From positions 3,329 through 67,328 of the forward strand of contig JADLFI010000026.1 in assembly GCA_020845635.1 (NCBI GenBank): a stretch of DNA of 64,000 nucleotides, given 5' to 3'. The DNA comes from Bacteroidia bacterium. GTDB lineage: Bacteria > Bacteroidota > Bacteroidia > UBA4408. How positions within the stretch are numbered: the first letter of the stretch is position 1; each line of letters begins with the position of its first letter. Of this stretch, positions 7,460 to 13,950 are shown in pieces. The notes beneath the pieces were generated by a model that saw only the letters and a list, made by a program, of their open reading frames with translations, made no database searches and was not told the DNA's origin. Made by a program: the position numbers and the translations under genes.

Positions 7460-9793
7460 CTAAACTCGGATGCCTACAACCGTTACATCATCTACTTGTT
7501 CAAGGTTTCCTTTCCAGTTTTCAAAAACATCATTTAATTTTTGATTTTGAGCTGACATTGGTTCATGAGCTATTGACAACAATAATTCTTGTAATTGATT
7601 ATACTTAAATTTTTTTCCACGCTCTCCGCCAAATTGGTCAGCAAAACCATCGGTAAGTGCATAAACAACATCTCCTTTTTGTAAGTCAAATGTATGAAGC
7701 GTAAACGGTTCCTTATCTCTGTCATGTTTACCAACCGGGAACCGGTCGCCTTTTATTTCAATTAATTTATTCTCTCTAATAATCCAAACGGGATTATTAG
7801 CCGATGAGCAACTTAAATTATTATTTTTTAAATCAAAACTTAATAAACTTCCATCCATGCCGTCTTTACCTCCTTCGGCACTTCCATCTTTTTTAAGTGT
7901 TTCTATAATTTTAGTTCGTGTATGGTTTAATATTTCATTTGGCAGAGATAACTTTTCTACCTCTACTGATTTTTCGAGGTATGCAATATTCAAGATGCTC
8001 ATAATGGCGCCCGGGACACCGTGTCCCGTACTATCAGCAATACATAATAAAAAATTACTTTGGGTTGCTGAGCCTGTTGAAGCAGCCCAGTAAAAATCTC
8101 CACTTACAACATCTTTTGGTTTGAACATTATAAAATAATCGCTTAAATTTTCATCTAACAATTTCTTACTAGCGAGTAAAGCTCTCTGAATCCGTTCTGC
8201 GTAATTGATAGAATCGGTAATTTCCTTATGTTTTTTTTCAATCAAATGCTTTTGTTCTTTTATTTCTAAAGTTGCCTCATTCACTTTAACTTTTAATTCA
8301 ACTGCTCGCGCTCGTAATCTTCTTCCATTCCACCATACAATTAAAAAAATCATAGAAATTGCAAACAAGGTATATAATGAATAAGCCCACCACGTTTTCC
8401 ACCAAGGTGGGCGAATGGTAAATTTATATTCATAAGGCGCACTCCAAAAACCCTCGCTATTCATGGCTTTTACTTTAAAGGTATAAGAGCCGTGAGGCAA
8501 ATTGCCATAGGATGCAAATGATTTGTTGGTAATAACACTCCAGTTTTCGTCAATACCTTCTAACATGTATTGGTACTTTACATTTTTTGGTTGGTTCATG
8601 GTTATACCAATAAAGTTGAAGGTGAGGTAGTTATTATTATACGCCAAACTTAAATTCTCAGGTAAAGAATACCATTTAGTTAGGCCATCAAAATTAAAAT
8701 CACTAACGCTTACGCCATTGCCTAGAGTAAGTGTACTATCTTTTTTGTTTTCTAAATTATTCCAAGCAATATTTTCGTTAAACAACTCAATAGTAGTTAA
8801 TTGTATATTGGGAGCAATGGAGTCGGGTAGCATATTCTCAGGGTGCATTGCTGTGAGTCTATCTTTTGCTCCTATCCATATAGTACCATCTTTAGCTTGT
8901 AACATGGTTTTACCGGCATTTACACCTATACCTAAAAAACCTTCTGCGTAGGTGTAATTTTTAAAAATAATATCTTGTTTGGTTAAGGTATTTGACTTGA
9001 TTTTGTCATTAATTTCAATTGATTTTGATGGTGTTAACTTACTAATCCCAAAGCGGGTGCCGAACCAAAGGTTTCCGCTTTGGTCTTCTAACAGCGAGAA
9101 AACAGTAATGTTGGCAAGCCCTTCTTTATCGCTAAAAGTAGTAAAGGATTTCCCATCATACTTACTTACTCCGCCAAATGTGCCGAACCAAAGGTTTCCG
9201 CTTTGGTCTTCTAATATACTCAAAACAGCATTGTTTGCAAGGCCTTCTTTATCGCTAAAAGTAGTAAAGGATTTCCCATCATACTTACTTACTCCGCCAT
9301 CTGTGCCGAACCAAAGGTTTCCGGATTTGTCTTGCAGCATACATCTTATAGTGCCTTGTTTTAAACCTTGTAGTTTACCATAAGTGCTAAAGTTTTGGGG
9401 GTTTTGGTCTTTGTTAGCCATATCTTTAGCTATAACAGTTTCGGGTATGCCGGCAACAAAAGGACTATCGATGGCAGGTACTGTTTTTGGGAGCAGAAAA
9501 GTATCTTGCCCGGGGGTGCAAATGCGTGGTGTGCCTGCTAATACAATTTTTGGGATGCCTACAGGATGCACATTTAAATTAGTAGGTACAATTTTGGGCT
9601 TGCCAACGGGAATCTTTTCGAGCTTGCTTTCATCAACAAAAACAACTTTTGGTTCAGCCATGCTGTCTTTGGGTACTACATAGCCTTTGGTTACTACCAC
9701 CTTAGGAGTAATAATTTGCTGTTGTTTGTTTTCTTGCTTGTTGTTGCAAGAAAATAATAGTAAGAGAAAAACTATTGAAAAGTAATATTTCAC
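7460..9793 (-). CDS. Membrane-anchored sensor serine phosphatase: periplasmic two-component-regulator propeller (Reg_prop) repeats + Y_Y_Y domain + TM helix + coiled coil + SpoIIE/PP2C phosphatase domain
   Basis: It has a lipoprotein-type signal (MKYYFSIVFLLLLFSC). The GNLWFGTxxGVSKYDGKSFTTF motif repeats, as in Reg_prop blades. YTFKVKAMNSEGFWSAP is Y_Y_Y-like. WWAYSLYTLFAISMIFLIVWW is a TM segment. The C-terminal GDFYW…ADSTGHGVPGA…DGMDG…TDGFADQFGG matches PP2C/SpoIIE metal-binding motifs. Confidence 0.75.
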   Translation of the reverse strand: MKYYFSIVFLLLLFSCNNKQENKQQQIITPKVVVTKGYVVPKDSMAEPKVVFVDESKLEKIPVGKPKIVPTNLNVHPVGIPKIVLAGTPRICTPGQDTFLLPKTVPAIDSPFVAGIPETVIAKDMANKDQNPQNFSTYGKLQGLKQGTIRCMLQDKSGNLWFGTDGGVSKYDGKSFTTFSDKEGLANNAVLSILEDQSGNLWFGTFGGVSKYDGKSFTTFSDKEGLANITVFSLLEDQSGNLWFGTRFGISKLTPSKSIEINDKIKSNTLTKQDIIFKNYTYAEGFLGIGVNAGKTMLQAKDGTIWIGAKDRLTAMHPENMLPDSIAPNIQLTTIELFNENIAWNNLENKKDSTLTLGNGVSVSDFNFDGLTKWYSLPENLSLAYNNNYLTFNFIGITMNQPKNVKYQYMLEGIDENWSVITNKSFASYGNLPHGSYTFKVKAMNSEGFWSAPYEYKFTIRPPWWKTWWAYSLYTLFAISMIFLIVWWNGRRLRARAVELKVKVNEATLEIKEQKHLIEKKHKEITDSINYAERIQRALLASKKLLDENLSDYFIMFKPKDVVSGDFYWAASTGSATQSNFLLCIADSTGHGVPGAIMSILNIAYLEKSVEVEKLSLPNEILNHTRTKIIETLKKDGSAEGGKDGMDGSLLSFDLKNNNLSCSSANNPVWIIRENKLIEIKGDRFPVGKHDRDKEPFTLHTFDLQKGDVVYALTDGFADQFGGERGKKFKYNQLQELLLSIAHEPMSAQNQKLNDVFENWKGNLEQVDDVTVVGIRV
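9057..9340. repeat. Tandem direct repeat with a 123-bp unit (~2.3 copies, near-identical) inside the propeller-repeat coding region
   Basis: The unit gtgccgaaccaaaggtttccgctttggtcttctaa…gctaaaagtagtaaaggatttcccatcatacttacttactccgcca starts at 9057, 9180 and 9303. Copies 1 and 2 differ at only a handful of positions. The repeat encodes 41-aa propeller blades (EDQSGNLWFGT.GGVSKYDGKSFTTFSDKEGLAN..V.S.L). Confidence 0.9.
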
Positions 9794-11223: not shown

Positions 11224-13950
11224 ATGAAATTAAAGATAGGAATTGTGTTTGGCGGTTTCTCGCGCGAACGCGAAGTATCTTTTGCCGGAGGCAGAACTGT
11301 GTATGATAATCTGAATAAATCGCTCTTTGAAGCAATTCCATTGTTTGTTGACAGTTTTGGAAATTTTATTCAACTTAATTGGGAGTATATTTACAAAGGA
11401 AGTATTCGTGATTTTTACCCGCCTGTATCGTTTATTAGCAATAGTCCCAATCATTATCAGGTTTATGCCGAAAGTTTGATAAAATCTACCGACAAGCAAG
11501 CTGAGAAAATGGCTGAAGGGATTGGGAAAACAATTCCACCCGATAAGTTAATAAACTTAATAGATTTTGCTTTTTTGTGTCTGCACGGCCCTTATGGTGA
11601 AGATGGAACTATACAGGGGTTGTTTGATTATTACGGAATCCCGTATTCCGGCTCCGGAATTTTCCCTTCATCGGTAGGCATTAATAAAATTATACAAAAG
11701 CAACTGATGGCTGAGGCAGGGTTTAATGGCCCTACTTATACCACCATCAGTAAAGAAGAATGGACAAAAAACAATCGCCCCGAAATATTTCATCGTGTTG
11801 CACAGAAAGTTAAATTCCCCTTAGTCATAAAAGCTCCAACACAAGGCTCCTCTATAGGTATAAGTATTCTAAAGAATAGTGATTATGATGGATTTTGTAA
11901 GGCTGTCAATAAGAGTTTTTTCAGAATTGAATTGGAGGCTGAACAATGGAAACACAAAGAGATGTCTCAGAGAGTAGAAGAAGTAAGACAGTGGAGCGAT
12001 ATTAGGGAAGGTATAGGTATGCCTGTACTATTGTCCGGCTTTATGAATAATGAACTAACAGAAGAGAAAATAATTCTACATCCTGAAGATTTATTGAACG
12101 AGTTAAACAATATTTTGAACCATAACACGCTTGCAGTTATTGAAGCGCTTGATGGCGAGCATGAAGTACTTATCGAAGAATTCATTGAAGGCCGTGAGTT
12201 TTCTTGTATTGTGGTTGAGCATTATCAGGATAATAAGCAACAGTTAATTGCACTGCCGCCCACCGAAATAAGAAAAGGACAAGATTTATTTGATTATAGA
12301 TGTAAATATTTGCCGGGTTTAGCACGTAAAATTACACCTATTAACTTACCTTTAGAACAGATAAATGAAATAAGCCACCATTGTAAGAAACTCTTTAAAA
12401 CTCTACGTTTTGACGTATATGCCCGCATTGACGGTTTTATAAACAATTCAGGCAATATATTTTTAAATGATCCCAACACTACTTCGGGCATGATGCCCTC
12501 TTCCTTTTTCTTTCATCAGGCGGCTGAGATTGGTTTAAATCCATCTCAATTTCTCACCTTTATAATCTCTACTTCATTAAAGAAAAGAAGCTTGTCCAAT
12601 AAAAATCAGGATAGAATCATGAAACAATATCTTGATTTATTGAAAAATATTAGACAACAACACAGCCACTCTAACGATAAAATAAAGGTTGCCGTTGTAA
12701 TGGGTGGATACAGTAGTGAAAGACATATCTCAGTGGAGAGTGGTAGAAATATTTATGAAAAACTTTTTTCGTCCGAAAAATATTTACCTATTCCAATATT
12801 CTTAACAGGTAACAGCAACGAGCATATATTATATACCTTACCGGTAAATATTTTGTTGAAGGACAATGCCGATGATATTAAAGAAAAAGTAATCCATTAT
12901 CAAGAACATCCATTTATTACTGCTCTTAAAGAAGAAGCAAGGCCACTGACACGACTCTTTACCGGTGATTTGGAAGTAAAGAAGCCTGAAAAAATACAGT
13001 ACACCTCACTTAAGAACATGGCCGATATTGTGTTTATAGCCCTACATGGTCGCCCGGGTGAAGATGGAGCAGTACAACAAAAATTAGATGAGTTAGGAAT
13101 ACCGTACAACGGTAGTGGGGTACAAAGTTCGCAAACAACCATAAATAAATATCTAACTAATAATATTTTACATCAATCGGGCTTACACACAGCTAAACAC
13201 CTAATGGTTAATGAAACAGAATGGAATCTTCAAAAAGAAAGTGTAATAGATAATATTGAGAAAAACATTGGGTATCCGCTTATAGCTAAACCTGTTGACG
13301 ATGGTTGCAGCAGTGCCGTAAAAAAGATTAAAAATCGAAACGAGTTAGAAGCCTTTGCATTGTTAATTTTTAGAAACGATTTATGCTTGAACGAATCGGC
13401 AGCAGAGAAATTGAAATTAAAAATCAATGAAGAGTTTCCACAAAAAAAAGAGTTTCTAATTGAAGAATTGATAAGTGCAAAAGGAGCAGCCCACTTCATA
13501 GAAATTACAGGAGGCTTGTTAACTCATTATAACGAAAATAAGGAGATAGAATACGAAATTTTTGAGGCTAGCGAGACTTTGGCCGAAGGAGAAGTGCTTT
13601 CGCTTGAAGAGAAATTTTTGGCAGGGCAGGGGCAAAACATTACTCCGGCACGCTATGCCCTAAATAATGAAGATGCCAAAAAAATATCTGCTTTAGTAAA
13701 AAAAGATTTTCTAAAGGCAGCTTTAGCTTTAAATATTGAGGGTTATGCTCGTATTGACGCATTTGTAAGGGTTTACAGTCCCGAAAAAGTAGAAGTTATA
13801 TTCATTGAGGTTAACTCATTGCCCGGAATGACTCCGGCTACGTGCATTTTCCATCAAACTGCCATTAACGGGTATATGCCTTATGAGTTTATAGATAAAA
13901 TATTAGAGTTTGGATTTGAAAGAATTTCATTGAAAAAAGCACTTCTCTAA
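11224..13950 (+). CDS. ddl: Tandem-duplicated D-alanine--D-alanine ligase-like ATP-grasp protein (two complete Ddl-like modules fused in one 908-aa polypeptide)
   Basis: Module 1 (aa ~1-450): KIGIVFGGFSREREVSFAGG…LHGPYGEDGTIQGLFDYYGIPYSGSG…PLVIKAPTQGSSIGISI…EEFIEGREFSC…ARIDGFI…LNDPNTTSGMM. Module 2 (aa ~480-908): KVAVVMGGYSSERHISVESG…LHGRPGEDGAVQQKLDELGIPYNGSG…PLIAKPVDDGCSSAV…ARIDAFV…IEVNSLPGMT. Both halves carry the Ddl N-domain, central ATP-grasp motif and C-terminal motif. Both also have a ~50-60 aa insertion at the same position. Confidence 0.75.
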   Translation: MKLKIGIVFGGFSREREVSFAGGRTVYDNLNKSLFEAIPLFVDSFGNFIQLNWEYIYKGSIRDFYPPVSFISNSPNHYQVYAESLIKSTDKQAEKMAEGIGKTIPPDKLINLIDFAFLCLHGPYGEDGTIQGLFDYYGIPYSGSGIFPSSVGINKIIQKQLMAEAGFNGPTYTTISKEEWTKNNRPEIFHRVAQKVKFPLVIKAPTQGSSIGISILKNSDYDGFCKAVNKSFFRIELEAEQWKHKEMSQRVEEVRQWSDIREGIGMPVLLSGFMNNELTEEKIILHPEDLLNELNNILNHNTLAVIEALDGEHEVLIEEFIEGREFSCIVVEHYQDNKQQLIALPPTEIRKGQDLFDYRCKYLPGLARKITPINLPLEQINEISHHCKKLFKTLRFDVYARIDGFINNSGNIFLNDPNTTSGMMPSSFFFHQAAEIGLNPSQFLTFIISTSLKKRSLSNKNQDRIMKQYLDLLKNIRQQHSHSNDKIKVAVVMGGYSSERHISVESGRNIYEKLFSSEKYLPIPIFLTGNSNEHILYTLPVNILLKDNADDIKEKVIHYQEHPFITALKEEARPLTRLFTGDLEVKKPEKIQYTSLKNMADIVFIALHGRPGEDGAVQQKLDELGIPYNGSGVQSSQTTINKYLTNNILHQSGLHTAKHLMVNETEWNLQKESVIDNIEKNIGYPLIAKPVDDGCSSAVKKIKNRNELEAFALLIFRNDLCLNESAAEKLKLKINEEFPQKKEFLIEELISAKGAAHFIEITGGLLTHYNENKEIEYEIFEASETLAEGEVLSLEEKFLAGQGQNITPARYALNNEDAKKISALVKKDFLKAALALNIEGYARIDAFVRVYSPEKVEVIFIEVNSLPGMTPATCIFHQTAINGYMPYEFIDKILEFGFERISLKKALL

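Follow-up and report, generated by a model that had tools for sequence, protein, structure and literature searches.

Why should the blades of a periplasmic sensor be encoded by a tandem repeat whose units are so similar at the DNA level, and does the number of these units vary? We have addressed this for a sensor-phosphatase gene in the window, i.e., the whole 64,000-nucleotide stretch of DNA analysed here. The window belongs to a contig of a metagenome-assembled genome (MAG), and the proteins neighbouring the gene exactly match NCBI 'MAG: Bacteroidia bacterium' proteins.

The 123-bp array and the gene that carries it

As assembled, the sensor-phosphatase gene occupies 7460..9793 of the minus strand and encodes 777 aa, as delimited by the ORF list, Pfam, 5798 homologues and an AF2 model (mean pLDDT 80.5). 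The protein runs from a lipoprotein signal through a disordered linker, Reg_prop blades, a Y_Y_Y domain and a TM helix to a PP2C/SpoIIE domain. The signal peptide with its lipobox (residues 1-16, ...LLLFSC, 9746..9793) was read from the sequence, and its C16 is invariant among 61 homologues. The Y_Y_Y beta-sandwich (8414..8809) is marked by PF07495 at residues 401-460 (E=8e-16), by AF2 strands at 329-460 and by Foldseek matches to BT3049 and BT4663. It is followed by the TM helix (residues 468-488, WWAYSLYTLFAISMIFLIVWW, 8330..8392), a hydrophobic stretch at the start of the AF2 helix 468-539, and by the cytoplasmic SpoIIE-type PP2C phosphatase domain (7463..8056; PF07228 at residues 580-777, E=2.4e-18). 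No STAS or anti-sigma partner gene was seen among the listed neighbours of the sensor gene.

Within this gene, TRF reports a single tandem array at 9057..9323, with a period of 123, 2.2 copies, 91% matches, 0 indels and a score of 450, which is also the sole repeat with a period above 24 in the 64-kb window. A separate repeat search places full units, 90% identical to each other, at 9057-9179 and 9180-9302, and adds a partial third copy of 31 nt (9303-9333), also at 90%. Since the period corresponds to 41 codons and the array keeps to the frame of the minus-strand ORF, the in-frame 123-bp repeat of ~2.3 copies described in the initial annotation is confirmed together with its position. Units 1 and 2 agree at 111 of 123 positions, and the binomial tail of 4e-48 (per-base match probability 0.277) excludes chance similarity. 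Nevertheless, 'near-perfect' with only a few differences was too strong a description for the window, where the two full units differ at 12 of 123 positions when aligned in the TRF register, or at 13 when aligned by codons (~90% identity), and where the longest exact repeat is 57 nt.

As had been proposed from the DNA, the units code for propeller blades. Each is a Reg_prop blade of 41 residues in the extracytoplasmic part of the lipoprotein-anchored sensor, and Pfam detects Reg_prop (PF07494) in three stretches with E=4e-22. The first blade, or unit 0 (residues 124-164, 9302..9424), is diverged: the blade HMM matches it at residues 130-164, the DNA repeat covers only its final ~31 nt (9303-9333), and it differs from units 1 and 2 at 56-60 nt. 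Next come unit 1 (residues 165-205, containing LANNAVLSILED, 9179..9301), located by the repeat search, the codon alignment and the blade HMM, and unit 2, the final array unit (residues 206-246, containing LANITVFSLLED, 9056..9178), located by the first two of these. The two share 36 of 41 residues, and their dS is 0.175, while dS between unit 0 and either of them is 0.9-1.1. After the array lies a diverged terminal blade region (residues 247-320, including KDGTIWIGAKDRL, 8834..9055), in which AF2 places strands at 278-316 and which is kept in aligned relatives.

Units 1 and 2 owe 10 of their 12 differences to a single stretch of 28 nt. According to the mismatch positions and the codon alignment, this variable patch (9092..9119, minus strand) codes for NNxVxS(I/L), where the innermost strand begins, and the differences include Ser AGT versus TCG. 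The same positions also vary in the array of locus L081 and in the family consensus.

On the opposite strand, an ORF of 134 aa with a TTG start (8979..9383, plus strand) had been put down to the repeat, and we agree. It is spurious because the gene opposite to it has thousands of homologues, and its repeated peptide merely mirrors the array.

Unit number in the same population and in relatives

A sister MAG contig, JAIXKO010000044.1 (locus L082), matches the flanks of the window at 99.99% (1 mismatch in 7385 nt), and apart from the array there is no indel between the two over ~19.4 kb aligned. The gene span in L082 is 3564 nt, which equals 2334 + 10 x 123; that is, it is exactly 10 units longer than in the window, and the implied product of 1187 aa falls inside the usual length range of the family. 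In its array, 3.7 units (99% DNA identity) are visible before a run of 934 N, which is followed by a last unit identical to unit 2 of the window. The N run equals 73 + 7 x 123 and is thus exactly in phase with the repeat. Within the visible part of the array, a stretch of 210 nt recurs without a mismatch, which is longer than typical short reads.

In other assemblies of this population, contigs break off just inside the array, 30-40 nt from one or the other edge: L084 at window position 9294 and L093 at 9086. The unit after blade 1 differs in three assemblies (NNTVW, NNAVL and NYTVF); in particular, the variable patch of window unit 1 (NNAVL) differs from that of units 1-3 of the sister assembly (NNTVW). 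Altogether the population holds at least four unit variants, which is beyond the capacity of a 2-unit array. Two assemblies of one population give 2.2 and ~12 units, a difference that is confounded by assembly. A 29-mer from the 3' junction had 0 matches in the metagenome contigs searched, and the genome contigs scanned contained no same-species genome (best segment identity 69%).

Relatives of the sensor phosphatase are ~1190-1300 aa long, as against 777 aa in the window. With the blade HMM, 13 blades are found in 82 of 120 homologues and 12-14 in 110 of them, as against 3 in the window protein, which has one further, diverged blade. Blade HMM, AF2 and Foldseek did not recover from the window ORF the ~14 blades of two seven-bladed propellers, but the span in L082 accommodates them as 12 units plus 2 diverged blades. 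Counts of 10 or fewer occur only where the median blade identity is at least 0.80 (6 of 29 homologues vs 0 of 91; Fisher p=1.3e-4). Each of these six homologues lies on a contig shorter than 90 kb; two of them, P0070 and P0071, have 9-10 blades in two separate assemblies.

Arrays in other species contain 11.4-12.3 units at 74-94% DNA identity, including one of 94% identity with 11.8 units on a 792-kb contig, and the blade consensus is strongly kept across species (GGGVSKYDGKSFTxFTEKEGLSNNxVxSILEDKxGNLWFGT). As the unit count stays in this range whatever the DNA identity, and 13 blades prevail among the homologues, stabilising selection on blade number is suggested. On this comparison of sequences, blade number appears constrained in the sensor-phosphatase family.

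Origin of the short array and of the near-identity of units

Given the family norm of 13-14 blades and a sister span exactly 10 units longer, the window shows a contraction rather than an expansion. Most likely, its array is an assembly collapse of a 12-unit array, so that the short form would be an artefact and not a real allele. The real gene would then carry 12 tandem units of ~99% DNA identity bracketed by diverged first and last blades, and the 12 units with these two blades would add up to 14, which suffices for the two seven-bladed propellers known from BT4663-type sensors. Most likely, the assembler joined blade 1 straight to the last two units, dropping ~10 units (1230 bp) and keeping the frame. 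The locus is like collapsed repeats in short-read and MAG assemblies in its near-identity over more than a read length, its edge breaks, its gap of the right size and its varying junctions.

A true in-frame deletion predicts the same window sequence as a collapse does. Several observations sit uneasily with collapse: the 144-kb contig of the window crosses the array unbroken, whereas most assemblers broke there; the stated length of the 934-N scaffold gap may be just an estimate, and its exact phase could be due to chance (about 1 in 123); the low counts of P0070 and P0071 in two assemblies raise the prospect that real contractions occur in the family; and AF2 models the remaining blades of the window confidently (pLDDT ~90).

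The main alternative is that the short array is real, and that the strain of this MAG lost 10 units in frame through homologous recombination or replication slippage between near-identical copies. We consider this unlikely, though it deserves some weight. The window product is in frame and exactly as unequal crossing-over of unit 1 with unit 11 would give, and the exact repeats of up to 210 nt between units are good RecA substrates. But with flanks 99.99% identical to those of the long-form assembly, the deletion would have had to occur only very recently and still come to dominate the sample, and all other assemblies of the population break or show a gap at the array. Contracted relatives do exist, and the contraction of P0070 and P0071 is reproducible in two assemblies; still, contracted relatives all lie on contigs below 90 kb, and 12-14 blades are kept in 110 of the 120 relatives. 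If the deletion were real, it would leave a 4-blade sensor that either does not function or can fold only in oligomeric form. Propeller fragments that fall short of the blade number of their lineage have been reported (Pereira and Lupas 2022, PMC9218822), and fragments of 2-5 blades can form oligomeric propellers (Afanasieva et al. 2019, PMC6805158). It is slightly more doubtful that the 2-unit array is a genuine allele, produced by a very recent loss of 10 blades from a 12-unit array in a natural population, and caught in the contracted phase of a contraction/re-amplification cycle that would switch the sensor on and off or change its specificity. If true, such a cycle would explain the persistent DNA identity of Reg_prop blades in Bacteroidota sensor phosphatases.

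Under the preferred reading, i.e., collapse, the 777-aa 'sensor' annotation should not be taken at face value, as 410 residues are probably missing, and the same caution is due for other short family members in metagenome assemblies.

The initial annotation had gone further and suggested a contingency-like switch, in which 123-bp units would often be gained and lost, changing the number of blades and hence the ligand-binding surface of the phosphatase sensor. We find this very unlikely. The units are indeed in frame and highly identical, two assemblies of one population do differ in copy number, and the array of L081 is a mosaic with a higher-order pattern of four units. However, the sole copy-number difference is explained equally well by assembly collapse, the unit and blade numbers are steady across species as given above, and arbitrary blade numbers are not tolerated by a closed double propeller. 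Moreover, the unit is 123 bp long, whereas contingency loci typically have short simple-sequence repeats. The idea rests on one ambiguous difference between two assemblies, and the array opens no long-standing question.

As for the near-identity of the units, it most likely comes from recent amplification, or from ongoing homogenisation through unequal crossing-over and gene conversion in the array, and the few positions where variation is chiefly tolerated would lie at the mouth of the propeller shaft. The low dS of units 1 and 2 speaks for recent amplification or concerted evolution. Thus the recent duplication or homogenisation proposed at first stands, also in view of the 99% identity of the sister units, while the reading of 2.3 copies as the whole propeller does not, the family having 13-14 blades. 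In the L081 array (94% TRF matches), codons 6-40 of 11 homogeneous units vary at just five codon positions, and the mosaic mentioned above indicates past unequal exchange. That the only residues differing among homogenised blades sit at the ligand-binding mouth of the propeller is inferred; if they do face the ligand, this would be a natural system for studying binding-site differentiation in a symmetric propeller.

That the repeats are instead ancient and stable, kept similar through purifying selection on the blade protein sequence alone, is extremely improbable and was rejected. Strong conservation of the blade consensus between species would fit it, but synonymous sites too are near-identical within arrays (window dS 0.175; 99% DNA identity in L082), and the five variable codon positions of L081 compare with matching codons at only 0.5-0.7 of identical residues between species.

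Codon sharing between species is weakly raised in the blades relative to the C-terminal domain (0.65-0.73 vs 0.51-0.54, ~30 codons), and we do not claim nucleotide-level constraint or blade transfer. Concerted evolution predicts that blades group by protein; in a nearest-blade analysis of this, 16% of nearest neighbours came from the same protein, a figure confounded by close homologues among the matches and given no weight here.

Comparison with known systems

The C-terminal domain is like that of the partner-switching PP2C phosphatases SiaA, RsbU and SpoIIE, as judged from 6K4E, Pfam SpoIIE and NCBIfam SiaA. In Foldseek, the phosphatase domain of the AF2 model aligns with SiaA-PP2C 6K4E at TM 0.90, rmsd 2.4 and 31% identity. 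The sensor module, however, is a different one. The NCBIfam SiaA match (NF038263) is limited to residues 492-777 and scores 178.4 bits against a cut-off of 700, and the sensor phosphatase is therefore not a SiaA equivalog.

On the sensor side, the closest systems are the Bacteroides HTCS sensors BT4663, BT3049 and BT4673 (PDB 4A2L/4A2M, 3V9F and 3OTT/3VA6), which likewise have Reg_prop blades, then Y_Y_Y and a TM helix. Each of them has two seven-fold propellers plus Y_Y_Y and binds its ligand on the entry faces (PMC5121618). P0002, a full-length relative, matches 4A2L and 3V9F at ~1e-64, while the window model reaches ~3e-21 (Foldseek for the window), aligning to ~340-370 columns of the ~740-residue BT3049 and BT4663 sensor domains with a target TM of 0.33-0.35. 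In contrast to the HTCS, the output here is a PP2C phosphatase: Pfam and Foldseek found the SpoIIE/PP2C domain alone C-terminally, with no histidine kinase, receiver or AraC. The blades, too, are near-identical here rather than diverged, and ~4 of 14 are present as assembled. Our literature search found no description of Reg_prop-SpoIIE fusions.

Amplification and concerted evolution of near-identical blades are already known for beta-propellers. Highly repetitive propellers, defined by at least 2 consecutive blades with a median pairwise identity above 60%, have been described, with the assembly of identical blades as a recurrent problem (Pereira and Lupas 2022, PMC9218822). The present array falls into this class, as units 1 and 2 share 88% of residues, and near-identity extends to synonymous sites (dS 0.175; 99% in L082 and 94% in L081). 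The class includes the WRAP domain of Nostoc Npun_R6612 (Dunin-Horkawicz 2014; Afanasieva 2019, PMC6805158; Pereira and Lupas 2022, PMC9218822). It shares with our sensors the diverged first and last strands or blades and a homogenised array of its own in each species, and reports on it already include ambiguous assemblies as well as fragments that lack blades (PMC9218822).

Two differences set the present case apart. Unlike in the propellers surveyed, the blades are Reg_prop, a family of which we found no mention in the text or supplements of Pereira and Lupas 2022 (PMC9218822), and they form the periplasmic sensor of a Bacteroidota PP2C phosphatase. Unlike in single highly repetitive propellers, the twelve units here are the core of a double propeller. 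Overall, the Bacteroidota Reg_prop-PP2C sensors, with 12 blades nearly identical in DNA, a fixed blade number and variation confined to a few positions, constitute a clear periplasmic double-propeller case of continuously re-homogenised beta-propellers.

The 123-bp repeat and the protein it encodes

We have found a single tandem array at 9057..9323 with TRF (period 123, 2.2 copies, 91% matches, zero indels), which is the sole repeat with a period above 24 in the 64-kb window. With a period of 41 codons, the array lies in frame within the sensor-phosphatase ORF 7460..9793 on the minus strand. Its two full units (9057-9179 and 9180-9302) are adjoined by a partial third copy of 31 nt (9303-9333), and its longest exact repeat is 57 nt. 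Aligned as the initial annotation had proposed, the full units are identical at 111 of 123 positions; since the binomial tail of this match is 4e-48, a chance origin is excluded. The tandem repeat described there is therefore real, while the wording "near-perfect" overstated an identity of 90% (12 differences). An antisense ORF at 8979..9383 is indeed present and merely mirrors the repeat.

As had been supposed, the units encode propeller blades: the 777-aa product carries three Reg_prop repeats, followed by a Y_Y_Y domain, one TM helix and a SpoIIE/PP2C domain. It begins with a lipoprotein-type signal ending in LLLFSC, of which C16 is invariant among relatives. Residues 16-112, between lipobox and blade 1, form a linker predicted to be disordered by AF2 (pLDDT below 50); it is rich in proline and lysine, and its sequence is conserved among relatives despite the predicted disorder. 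A short direct repeat lies in the linker region at 9542-9611 (25 nt, spacing 45, 80% identical). In Foldseek, the extracytoplasmic part matches the sensor domains of BT3049 and BT4663, and the C-terminus matches SiaA-PP2C (TM 0.90), while the NCBIfam SiaA score of 178 is far under the cut-off of 700. From these matches and the domain content, the protein is a PP2C phosphatase with a Reg_prop sensor. The low score led us to reject a SiaA orthologue, and the SpoIIE/PP2C domain at the C-terminus a hybrid two-component system.

Unit number in a sister assembly and in the family

The proteins adjoining the gene have exact matches in two NCBI "MAG: Bacteroidia bacterium" assemblies, the second of which (GCA_026932345.1) carries the same gene on the 545-kb contig JAIXKO010000044.1 (L082). 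Its flanks are 99.99% identical to those in the window (on one side, 1 mismatch in 7385 nt), and there is no other indel over ~19.4 kb aligned. The gene span is 3564 nt in L082, i.e., the 2334 nt of the window plus exactly 10 x 123. Blade 1 is followed in L082 by 3.7 units (99% DNA identity), a 934-N scaffold gap (L082 7386-8319), and a last unit identical to that of the window. As the sequence edges demand 73 + 123n, and 934 is 73 + 7 x 123, the gap lies exactly in repeat phase and reading frame, so that its length either comes from spanning data or is a coincidence of 1 in 123. This in-phase gap implies 12 units and a 1187-aa protein, inside the usual family length range. In addition, the protein accession numbering from the protease to RdgB leaves room for two proteins in the L082 MAG and one in the window's MAG, which, as inferred from these numbers, fits two partial genes called at the gap in the GenBank record. 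Also in this region, a single ORF (11224-13950, plus strand) encodes a 908-aa protein in which two complete D-Ala-D-Ala ligase modules are fused; Pfam lists Dala_Dala_lig_N and _C twice each for its identical counterpart in L082.

Nearly all of the best 120 homologues are 1190-1300 aa long. A blade HMM made from the 41/42-residue units of these proteins counted 13 blades in 82 and 12-14 in 110 of the 120, against 3 in the window protein. Aligned to its closest full-length relatives, the latter keeps the N-terminal region and blade 1 at one end, and the last repeat unit and the diverged terminal blade at the other, with ~10 blades between them absent. The span of L082 and these blade counts make it unlikely that the ~2.3 copies noted earlier are the true array state. 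In the closest relatives P0060 and P0021, one internal blade (alignment columns 260-310) has a lysine-rich insertion after YDGNC, VDDIINGTNIYPRTQQDLKKNKKDLV and EVITNTNKKDKKNASK respectively; the window and L082 units are without it.

Probable assembly collapse and its rivals

Judging from the sequences compared, collapse of a 12-unit array during assembly is the most likely origin of the 2.2-copy state. Within its visible part, the L082 array holds an exact 210-nt repeat, longer than typical short reads, and contigs from other samples of the population (Logan, NCBI) end 30-40 nt into the array, L084 at window position 9294 and L093 at 9086. The unit after blade 1 differs by assembly, being NNTVW in L082, NNAVL in the window and NYTVF in L083, another assembly of this population. 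With NITVF added, the population holds at least four unit variants, too many for a two-unit array. The window gene equals L082 over the first 551 nt, and divergence begins exactly in the unit 1 variable patch. These features are as expected of a collapsed path through the repeat graph, with blade 1 joined to the last units and ~10 units lost.

The main rival, a genuine and very recent deletion of 10 units, is considered unlikely, though a clean unequal crossover would yield the same junction, and the sequence alone fits both. Proteins with no more than 10 blades make up 6 of the 29 with median blade identity of at least 0.80 and 0 of the 91 below (Fisher p=1.3e-4). All six lie on contigs shorter than 90 kb, which fits assembly collapse, although real recombination also requires high identity. 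On the other hand, one contracted form (P0070/P0071) recurs as the same 1057-aa protein with 9-10 blades in two separate metagenome assemblies (18-kb and 48-kb contigs; C-terminal 520 residues identical), so some contractions in the Reg_prop-PP2C family may be real.

Relatives commonly carry tandem DNA arrays of period 123/126, with 11.8 copies at 94% identity in L081 (792-kb contig), the locus of the full-length relative P0001 from another species, and 12.3 at 83%, 11.7 at 80% (two loci), 11.4 at 76% and 12.2 at 74% elsewhere. About 12 units are maintained whatever the degree of homogenisation, which points to stabilising selection on blade number and leaves the contingency-type switch suggested earlier unsupported and very improbable.

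Homogenised blades and known propellers

Units 1 and 2 of the window differ with dN 0.099 and dS 0.175. Ten of the 12 nucleotide differences are packed into 28 nt (9092-9119), and 7 of the 9 differing codons into a ten-codon stretch, including Ser AGT to TCG; this clustering is more suggestive of a mosaic than of scattered point mutation. Mosaic shuffling is also seen in the 12-unit array of P0001 (L081 10452-11929), where eleven units are near-identical over codons 6-40. Differences recur at codons 24 (Y/V) and 26 (W/L), codons 28, 36 and 40 each differ in one or two units, and the first five aligned codons form two 5' haplotypes (41 or 42 residues). The array also has a higher-order period of four units, in which lengths of 42, 42, 41 and 41 residues go with matching Y/V and W/L states, implying that blocks of several units were duplicated. 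Between species, the same-codon fraction at identical residues is 0.54-0.73 in the blades (~30 codons) vs 0.51-0.54 in the C-terminal domain, at most modestly over this baseline. Such low sharing, beside near-identical units within arrays, indicates that the within-array homogeneity is recent, a product of amplification, unequal crossing-over or gene conversion, in agreement with the recent duplication or concerted evolution proposed initially. A 20-nt stretch, GGA AAC CTT TGG TTC GGC AC (GNLWFGT), is identical, synonymous sites included, in the blade consensus of the window, L081 and three loci of other species (L002, L004, L005); the C-terminal domains of these species are merely 57-64% identical in protein.

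Where blades are otherwise identical in DNA, their differences concentrate at unit positions shared by two species and a 61-protein consensus, NNxVxSILEDKxGNLWFGTx (compared over window 9092-9119, L081 10452-11929 and L082 8320-8775). In the AF2 secondary structure, x24 and x26 open the innermost strand and are predicted to face the entry side of the propeller shaft, where the BT4663 ligand binds (PMC5121618). A candidate binding site may be differentiating on a homogenised blade scaffold.

BT4663, BT4673 and BT3049 are each built of two seven-fold propellers and Y_Y_Y (PMC5121618), whereas the AF2 model for the window protein covers less than half of the BT3049 and BT4663 domains (target TM 0.33-0.35), as fits a protein with few blades. 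A survey of highly repetitive beta-propellers, in which recent homogenisation is described, warns on the assembly of identical blades and reads low blade counts as fragments (PMC9218822). In their recent within-array homogeneity, the Reg_prop arrays here resemble those propellers.
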